The notes under the pieces were generated by a model. It was not told where the DNA came from. It ran no database searches and saw only the letters and a list, made by a program, of their open reading frames with translations. The position numbers were made by a program, and so were the translations under genes. From IMG/VR virus record IMGVR_UViG_2671181188_000016: a DNA stretch of 8,419 bases, one strand, 5' to 3'. Shown here piece after piece: positions 6,719-6,769 of the stretch (its first letter is position 1; the number at the start of each line of letters is the position of its first letter). The stretch is from a virus. Its lineage: Duplodnaviria; Heunggongvirae; Uroviricota; Caudoviricetes.

Positions 6719-6769
6719 GGGGGGGGAGTGTTCCGGCCGGAAAGTCGATCACCCTGGACACCGCCCCCC
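6719..6769. repeat. G8 ... C6 imperfect long hairpin with central CCGGCCGG palindrome, between ORF53 and the TerS-like gene
   Basis: GGGGGGGG (6719-6726) and CCCCCC (6764-6769) flank GTGTTCC ... GGACACC partial complements and a CCGGCCGG palindrome (6733-6740). Confidence 0.3.

Follow-up and report, generated by a model that had tools for sequence, protein, structure and literature searches.

An HK97-type cos site is predicted upstream of terS in a PICI-type phage satellite island of E. coli

The short interval in front of terS that is marked by a run of eight G and a run of six C is probably (at a probability of roughly 0.8) the cos site of a PICI-type phage satellite. The site was probably copied from the Shiga-toxin (Stx) phages that the island would parasitise, and HK97-type lambdoid siphophages of the Stx1a/Stx2c group are its probable helpers. 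A packaging or cleavage signal was one of several explanations offered in the original prediction, and it is strongly supported by the homology of the region to cos sites that were mapped experimentally in HK97-type phages. The complementarity of the G-run and the C-run is probably a by-product of two conserved boxes, with no selected hairpin.

The island and the G8/C6 interval

The window (the whole stretch of 8,419 nucleotides that was analysed) represents a satellite island of about 9 kb of the PICI type, encoding an integrase, AlpA, a D5-type primase, TerS and a capsid homolog. Its gene set matches the PICI core components as listed in PMC10085698: int, alpA, a primase or replicase gene, a packaging-specificity gene and a capsid homolog, within ~9 kb and without tail or lysis genes. 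In E. coli O157:H7, yljB/cspD and clpS flank the island, and the gene annotation of that copy includes no TerL, HNH, portal, tail or lysis gene. The main genes are the following.

1-1224: tyrosine integrase
2086-2310: AlpA
3930-5684: D5_N/DUF5906 primase
6845-7333, + strand: terS, 162 aa, with a Terminase_2-type N-terminal helix-turn-helix (HTH) (PF03592, 1.9e-10; phrog_641, 1e-43)
7345-7506, + strand: ORF of 53 aa, just 3' of terS
7487-8419 (to the window end), + strand: capsid-protein homolog with the HK97 fold (Pfam Phage_capsid, 6.9e-7)
Elsewhere in the island: several small ORFs

The capsid homolog matches phrog_617 and phrog_10 via their C-terminal parts and is similar to the capsid portion of the protease-capsid fusion protein of the helper type. 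The stretch from 6540 to 6860 is carried at 95% identity or more by 220 of 5,426 complete E. coli genomes, and terS is intact in the island copies examined. With 96-100% overall identity among the copies, little can be concluded from their conservation. Directly after the integrase gene, an ORF of 257 aa (1221-1994, + strand) has a GC content of 0.30-0.34, compared with an island value of ~0.47; it gave no match in Pfam or PHROG and is likely to be acquired cargo, possibly a defence or accessory gene. Between this ORF and alpA lies a perfect 14-bp palindrome, GTGTGATATCACAC (2010-2023), a candidate operator in a regulatory region.

The interval itself begins after the stop codon (6713-6715) of another 53-aa ORF and ends at the ATG of terS (6845), which agrees with the location between a small ORF and terS first described for it. 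Its reading order is ...GAGCAATGACAT GGGGGGGG AGTG TTCCGGCCGGAA AGTCGATCACCCTGGACACCG CCCCCC GTCTCATTCG..., and we assign its parts, together with the repeats that follow, as listed here.

6719-6726, + strand: G8 tract, assigned as the upstream box of an HK97-type cos
6727-6745: island-specific spacer with TTCCGGCCGGAA, not conserved in phages or other family members
6733-6740: CCGGCCGG, inside the perfect 12-bp palindrome TTCCGGCCGGAA (6731-6742)
6746-6777, + strand: conserved cos core CGATCACCCTGGACACCGCCCCCCGTCTCATT
6762-6771, + strand: predicted 10-nt 3' cohesive end CGCCCCCCGT, by homology to mapped ends
6764-6769: C6 run, within the predicted cohesive end
6772-6801, + strand: A/T-rich segment beginning CTCATTCGTAGAAAATTTTGC that directly follows the predicted cut and resembles the left end of the phages
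6802-6822, + strand: two direct AAGTTACAC repeats, candidate TerS sites (cosB-like), with GTTAC starting at +33 and +45
7004-7075: six GTTAC/GTAAC motifs (two inverted, four direct) inside terS, a candidate second TerS cluster

All of the elements originally noticed in the interval, namely the G8 tract, the C6 run, the CCGGCCGG core and an imperfect inverted repeat, are present where they had been placed. The repeat finder returned arms of 17 nt at 6720-6736 and 6753-6769 (76% complementary) and outer arms of 14 nt at 6711-6724 and 6764-6777 (86% complementary). As RNA, the stretch folds at -33.1 kcal/mol (z = -2.1; 6 of 200 shuffles fold as well), and the DNA fold of the same stretch has a z of -0.7. 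The G8 tract is the longest G/C run in the window, where G/C runs of at least 8 are expected 0.13 times per shuffled window, and the C run at 6764-6769 is the only one of 6 or more. Palindromes of at least 12 bp are at chance level in the window, with 2 observed and 1.9 expected. The unusual feature is the pair of G and C boxes rather than the hairpin.

Homology to phage cos regions and the predicted cut

A sensitive blastn search with window positions 6690-6850 as the query, run against 50,697 phage records (a 2.3 Gb collection), gave matches confined to 6719-6798 and starting at the first G of the run. This segment, which takes in part of the A/T-rich stretch after the predicted cut, is 79% identical (E = 4e-8) to the region that separates HNH from terS in long-tailed Stx1a/Stx2c phages; matches as a whole were to Stx1a-, Stx2c- and Stx2-converting phages, along with related prophages, and their identities reached 79-81%. 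The gene order in the Stx phages is HNH endonuclease (PF01844), cos segment, terS, terL and a protease-capsid fusion gene. Within the segment, the core CGATC.CCC.GGACACCGCCCCCCGTCTCAT matches the Stx1a phage PV728 at 29 of 31 positions (the first 31 nt of the core listed above), and side by side the island reads G8 AGTGTTCCGGCCGGAAAGTCGATCACCCTGGACACCGCCCCCCGTCTCATTCGTAGAAAATT where PV728 reads G8 ATCATCCGGCGAAAAAAACGATCGCCCCGGACACCGCCCCCCGTCTCATGCAGAGAAAAAATT. When the island was aligned at the DNA level with the 6 kb phage packaging region, three segments only were recovered: the cos stretch and two parts of terS, one coding for the HTH recognition helix and the other for the C-terminal part.

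The island and the Stx1a/Stx2c phages (Lys8385Vzw, 1717, 2851, JLK-2012 and PV728) share a G-run, a spacer of ~29 nt, the box GGACACCGCCCCCC(G/C)TCTCA, an A-rich segment after the box, repeats at about +33 and +42, and a Terminase_2-type terS downstream. However, the phages have their own HNH and terL genes, both of which the island lacks; the island spacer is unlike theirs and holds the CCGGCCGG palindrome; and the repeats are GTTAAC in the phages but AAGTTAC in the island. The interval from cos to terS also differs, at 73 nt in the island versus ~230 nt in the phages, and the island repeats lie mostly inside terS. In one of the phages, JLK-2012 (L004 in our set), an HNH ORF annotated as 'restriction endonuclease' (2636-3166) runs across the cos site, where a 10-nt deletion relative to the other phages shifts the frame beyond the usual stop; this extension is probably an annotation or sequence artefact.

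The ends of several relatives have been mapped. PhageTerm analysis of virion DNA identified Lys8385Vzw as a cos phage with 10-nt 3' cohesive ends and a genome that finishes in CGCCCCCCCT (PMC7946995); the record of this phage ends with ...GGACACCGCCCCCCCT and begins with CTCACGCAG (CTCACG). The Acinetobacter phages fEg-Aba01, fLi-Aba02 and fLi-Aba03 have 10-nt 3' cohesive ends, 5'-CGCCCCCCAT-3', which were determined by PhageTerm and by a heat/cool restriction gel assay and labelled HK97 type by the authors (PMC7354433). All three records begin at the base directly after the CGCCCCCCAT box, and the sequence of this group is an Acinetobacter-type member of the same cos family as the island. The linear record of HK97 ends with ...G9 ATCAAATCTTCAAAACCTTTGCCCCAAATGACCGCCGCCAAA and starts with GTTTGAATTT, a layout of G9, ~40 nt and then ACCGCCGCCAAA at the right end of the genome. 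HK97 has 10-nt 3' overhangs, and its HNH protein gp74 stimulates cos cleavage (PMC11331095, PMC9410871); its TerS binding site extends from +15 to +29 after the cut (PMC11331095).

From these mapped ends we infer nicks at 6771/6772 on the top strand and 6761/6762 on the bottom strand of the island. The island shares the cut-site box GGACACCGCCCCCCGTCTCA with both the Stx and the Acinetobacter phages, and the ACCGCC..CC part of the box aligns with the right end of HK97. Counted from the first G of the run to the last base of the cohesive sequence, the interval spans 53 nt in the island, against 51-54 nt in the Stx phages and 51 nt in HK97. A recurrent feature of the family is an A-tract behind the cleavage site; in the island, terS starts at +74, and the candidate TerS sites are located downstream of the predicted cut. 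By eye, we saw no two-fold symmetry around the predicted nicks beyond GAC...GTC. Among 11 metagenome contigs with the island, none starts or ends at the site and none is circular.

In HK97, too, a G-run (G9) lies 51 nt before the genome end, an ACCGCC..CC box stands at that end, the site is flanked by the HNH gene and terS, and TerS binds downstream of the cut (PMC11331095, PMC9410871). However, the HK97 TerS has no Terminase_2 match and binds another sequence, the spacer and left end are unrelated, and HK97 is a complete phage whereas the island is a satellite. The TerL proteins of the Stx phages and HK97 are distant homologs (25% identity, E = 3e-8). The island encodes neither HNH nor TerL next to its predicted cos. 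A helper would have to supply both proteins, as is consistent with a satellite, but the site is then not a self-sufficient phage cos module.

The cos core is widespread. An exact-pattern scan of IMG/VR with GGACACCGCCCCCNNYCTCA, a pattern that excluded the G-run, found at least 120 contigs with the core, and 115 of the 120 contigs listed carry a run of 5-13 G whose 3' edge lies ~29 nt before GGACACC. Downstream of the cut, the 120 listed contigs form 14 clusters, three of which are lone chance matches that have no G-run. In several of the largest clusters, a GTTAA-type motif particular to the cluster is repeated and is followed by a homologous Terminase_2-type terS; the members with a repeat are listed here.

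Stx phages: repeat GTTAAC, 35 contigs
Island type: repeat AAGTTAC(A), 9 contigs
Low-GC, Acinetobacter type: repeat AGTTAAA, 33 contigs
One other member (L040): repeat TGTTAAA, 1 contig

The cluster analysis detected no repeated motif in the biggest of the other clusters (27 contigs, with L020 as representative). In contigs of this type (L020, L024 and L025 among them), just 40 nt separate the predicted cut from the start of terS, and the start codon is overlapped by a GTTAAC (ATGTTAAC); judging by this arrangement, TerS binding and the initiation of terS translation might overlap. A search for related loci with TerS among genome contigs returned no relatives, and an exact-pattern scan of the same contigs gave mostly apparent chance matches in high-GC genomes (Streptomyces and others), which were left out.

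The length of the G-run is variable. It ranges from 7 to 11 among island copies and from G7 to G11 in Stx phages and is G9 in HK97, a result that gives the comparison of homologous islands once proposed for this tract and, with the 5-13 found across the family, fits the idea that the poly-G is prone to slippage. The 3' edge of the run nevertheless keeps its distance to the core, and changes in length shift only the upstream DNA. By analogy with cosQ of lambda, the run may have a role in cleavage or in ending a packaging run. The spacer between the G-run and the core (6727-6745) is probably not essential. In one metagenome contig (L256; ERZ1673734 NODE-1866) that is 96% identical to window positions 6051-8419 and has a different replication module, a phage-type spacer, TATCATCCGGCGAAAAAAACGATCGCCAC, occupies the place between the G-run and GGACACC at ~6440-6520, flanked by island-type sequence and lacking the CCGGCCGG palindrome. 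This arrangement suggests recombination or gene conversion between the cos sites of the island and a phage (helper). The simplest reading of these patterns suggests a modular site, in which the G-run and the cut-site box would belong to the TerL/HNH side and the repeats after the cut to TerS.

TerS, its candidate repeats and the helper

The heptamer AAGTTAC occurs seven times in the window compared with 0.94 expected, a count reached in none of 200 shuffles, and six of the seven copies fall within 6802-7074. The first two GTTAAC motifs of the phages are at +34 and +42 after the cut. The repeats at 7004-7075 fall in a stretch of terS that encodes a poorly conserved linker (..VTPDVTFQVTKPKKVTKKVTEKVTPE..), and the Acinetobacter-type members also have a layout of two clusters, one upstream of terS and one in the linker, with the motif AGTTAAA.

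The island TerS is 46-47% identical to the TerS of Stx phages (46% to that of phage 1717); in the comparison with phage 1717, conservation holds for the N- and C-terminal parts but not for the linker. It keeps the HTH and especially the C-terminal half of the Stx-phage protein (IE.M..GLPDP.KAMGR.L..N...DP.LALDAA.KLAQFTH), whereas other family members do not have that half. Such C-terminal likeness would be expected if the island TerS works with the TerL of a helper. The recognition-helix region is very close to the phage version. Because the recognition helices are nearly alike, a private specificity for AAGTTAC over GTTAAC is only plausible, and the phage TerS might also be able to use the island site.

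The 53-aa ORF that follows terS (7345-7506) resembles the C-terminal core of another TerS subfamily (phrog_641 positions 89-125, 8e-7). Its segment DPIDVLTEIMNN..IRLQAAAVLMPYFH can be aligned to DPLKFLMAVMND..VRKDAAKAMLPYIH from L020-type phages at a pairwise E of 2e-7, and by this resemblance its product could be a decoy that interferes with helper TerS or TerL.

We propose that upon induction the island would replicate into concatemers, and that its TerS would bind the AAGTTAC repeats downstream of the cut (at +33 and +45, with six motifs within terS). The helper-like C-terminal half of this TerS would then recruit the TerL and HNH proteins of the helper, which would nick at the two predicted positions, and packaging would proceed in the direction of terS up to the next cos. 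A mode of hijacking not previously characterised in enterobacteria, in which the cos-type satellite of HNH-dependent, HK97-type Stx phages keeps the helper's cut site and G-box and redirects helper TerL and HNH through its own TerS with private AAGTTAC repeats partly in the terS linker, can be put forward tentatively from these comparisons, at somewhat less than even odds. The variable G-run could additionally tune the efficiency of cutting. Since the helper genomes are 50-60 kb and the island is ~9 kb, unit-length packaging from cos to cos would need small capsids or multimers.

The distribution of the two types of site among E. coli genomes fits this link to a helper. Among 29 island-bearing genomes, sampled evenly down the ranking of E. 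coli genomes, 27 have a second, phage-type match, and thus both the island site and a phage-type cos, whereas a phage-type match is present in only 237 of 5,206 genomes without the island. These counts are in keeping with co-residence of the island and candidate helpers, a co-occurrence confounded by the ancestry that lineages of Shiga-toxin-producing E. coli (STEC) have in common.

Alternative readings and other satellites

The interval could be an inactive relic, in which an HK97-type prophage was the source of the terS/capsid module and the cos-like sequence came with it, to be neither cut nor used for transfer. The island copies are too similar to measure purifying selection, and some of them have small variants of the C-run (C5, CCCCCA), as a relic might. 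However, similarity to the phages at the DNA level is limited to the cos stretch and the two terS segments, with the neighbours diverged beyond alignment; because the cos stretch was kept while neighbouring DNA diverged, selection on the site is indicated. The intact terS, the retention of a repeat architecture with its own motif at the correct spacing, and the full PICI gene set also argue against decay, and we consider this reading unlikely.

The G8/C6 repeat had also been viewed as an RNA structure controlling TerS, and more broadly it might form a hairpin in the operon transcript acting as an attenuator, a terminator, a processing site or a translational control of terS. The predicted stem (given above) and the position of the site between two co-oriented ORFs are in keeping with such a role, yet an alignment of 11 members of the cos family, compared with shuffles, had no covariation (53.9% paired cells versus 54.6% in shuffled alignments; score 0.070 versus 0.081), and only two invariant boxes, which form G:C pairs, hold the pairing. 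In island copies the G-run and C-run variants occur without compensating changes, and in L256 the inner stem is replaced. No U-tract follows the stem, no promoter-like site and no terminator-like site on the + strand was called in a scan of 6300-7400, Rfam gave no relevant match, and the stem ends ~57 nt before the Shine-Dalgarno sequence of terS (GAGG, 6834-6837). An RNA element is therefore very improbable, and the view of the hairpin with its CCGGCCGG core as a functional unit did not hold, given the lack of covariation and of the palindrome in L256. Equally improbable is that TTCCGGCCGGAA is the operator of a dimeric regulator and the poly-G a phase-variable switch. The palindrome is perfect over 12 bp and the G-run does differ in length among strains, but the number of palindromes is at chance, the one in question is missing from the phage counterparts as well as from L256, and the scanned region is devoid of a promoter-like site, so that the regulator-binding site once suggested found no support. 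As for a switch, the G-run is intergenic, its slippage shifts no annotated reading frame, and the distance from its 3' edge to the core is constant, so that only upstream DNA would be moved.

The analogy with lambdoid phages that had been drawn for this interval stands as far as the position of a cos in front of terS is concerned, but not for the lambda type, as the predicted site, with its 10-nt 3' overhang, belongs to the HK97 type and no convincing lambda cosN was found at the locus. The best match to lambda cosN (GGGCGGCGACCT) at the locus is 9/12, on the opposite strand at 6755-6766, and was rejected. Elsewhere in the window, GGGCGGCGACCC (5072-5083, + strand) is the sole match of 11/12 to lambda cosN, where a rough calculation gives ~0.04 expected by chance. 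It lies inside the primase gene (codons ..ITGGDPVE..) and is probably a coding coincidence, although other E. coli PICIs use a lambda-type cos.

Those PICIs, of the EcCICFT073 type, have int, alpA and primase genes and a cos directly upstream of an HTH packaging-specificity gene, followed by a capsid homolog; their cosN is common to satellite and helper, but the recognition region beside it is private (PMC6092414, PMC9026076). Their cos is of the lambda type, with cosQ and cosN and a 12-nt 5' overhang, and their Rpp forms a heterodimer with helper TerS (PMC6092414, PMC9026076), in contrast to the HK97-type cos and full-length TerS homolog of this island. SaPIbov5 and SaPIbov4 are likewise satellites with the helper's cos and a capsid homolog (Ccm) that redirects capsid size (PMC5052747), but they belong to Gram-positive hosts, are unrelated in sequence and have only a terS remnant, whereas the island terS is intact and has its own repeats. 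In SaPI1 and SaPIbov1, as outlined in PMC5052747 and PMC6092414, a satellite TerS homolog redirects helper TerL to satellite DNA, as proposed here, but through headful (pac) packaging rather than a cos with defined cohesive ends. Going by its sequence relationships, the island has both an intact TerS and an HK97-type 3'-overhang cos whose source is an HNH-dependent family of phages. No HK97-type 3'-overhang cos was described for PICIs in the literature searched, which comprised sources outside subscription journals.

Since satellites with a helper's cos or with their own TerS are already known, current concepts are unchanged. The analysis does yield a base-precise, testable prediction of the packaging cut for a STEC island that is widespread among the complete genomes counted above, and it names the Stx1a/Stx2c siphophages as the prophages most likely to mobilise it. 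It also points to a modular cos, in which the box and the G-run are common from HK97 via the Stx phages to the Acinetobacter phages and the downstream repeats vary with TerS. This modular design could help to annotate cos sites and to predict satellite-helper pairs from sequence alone.
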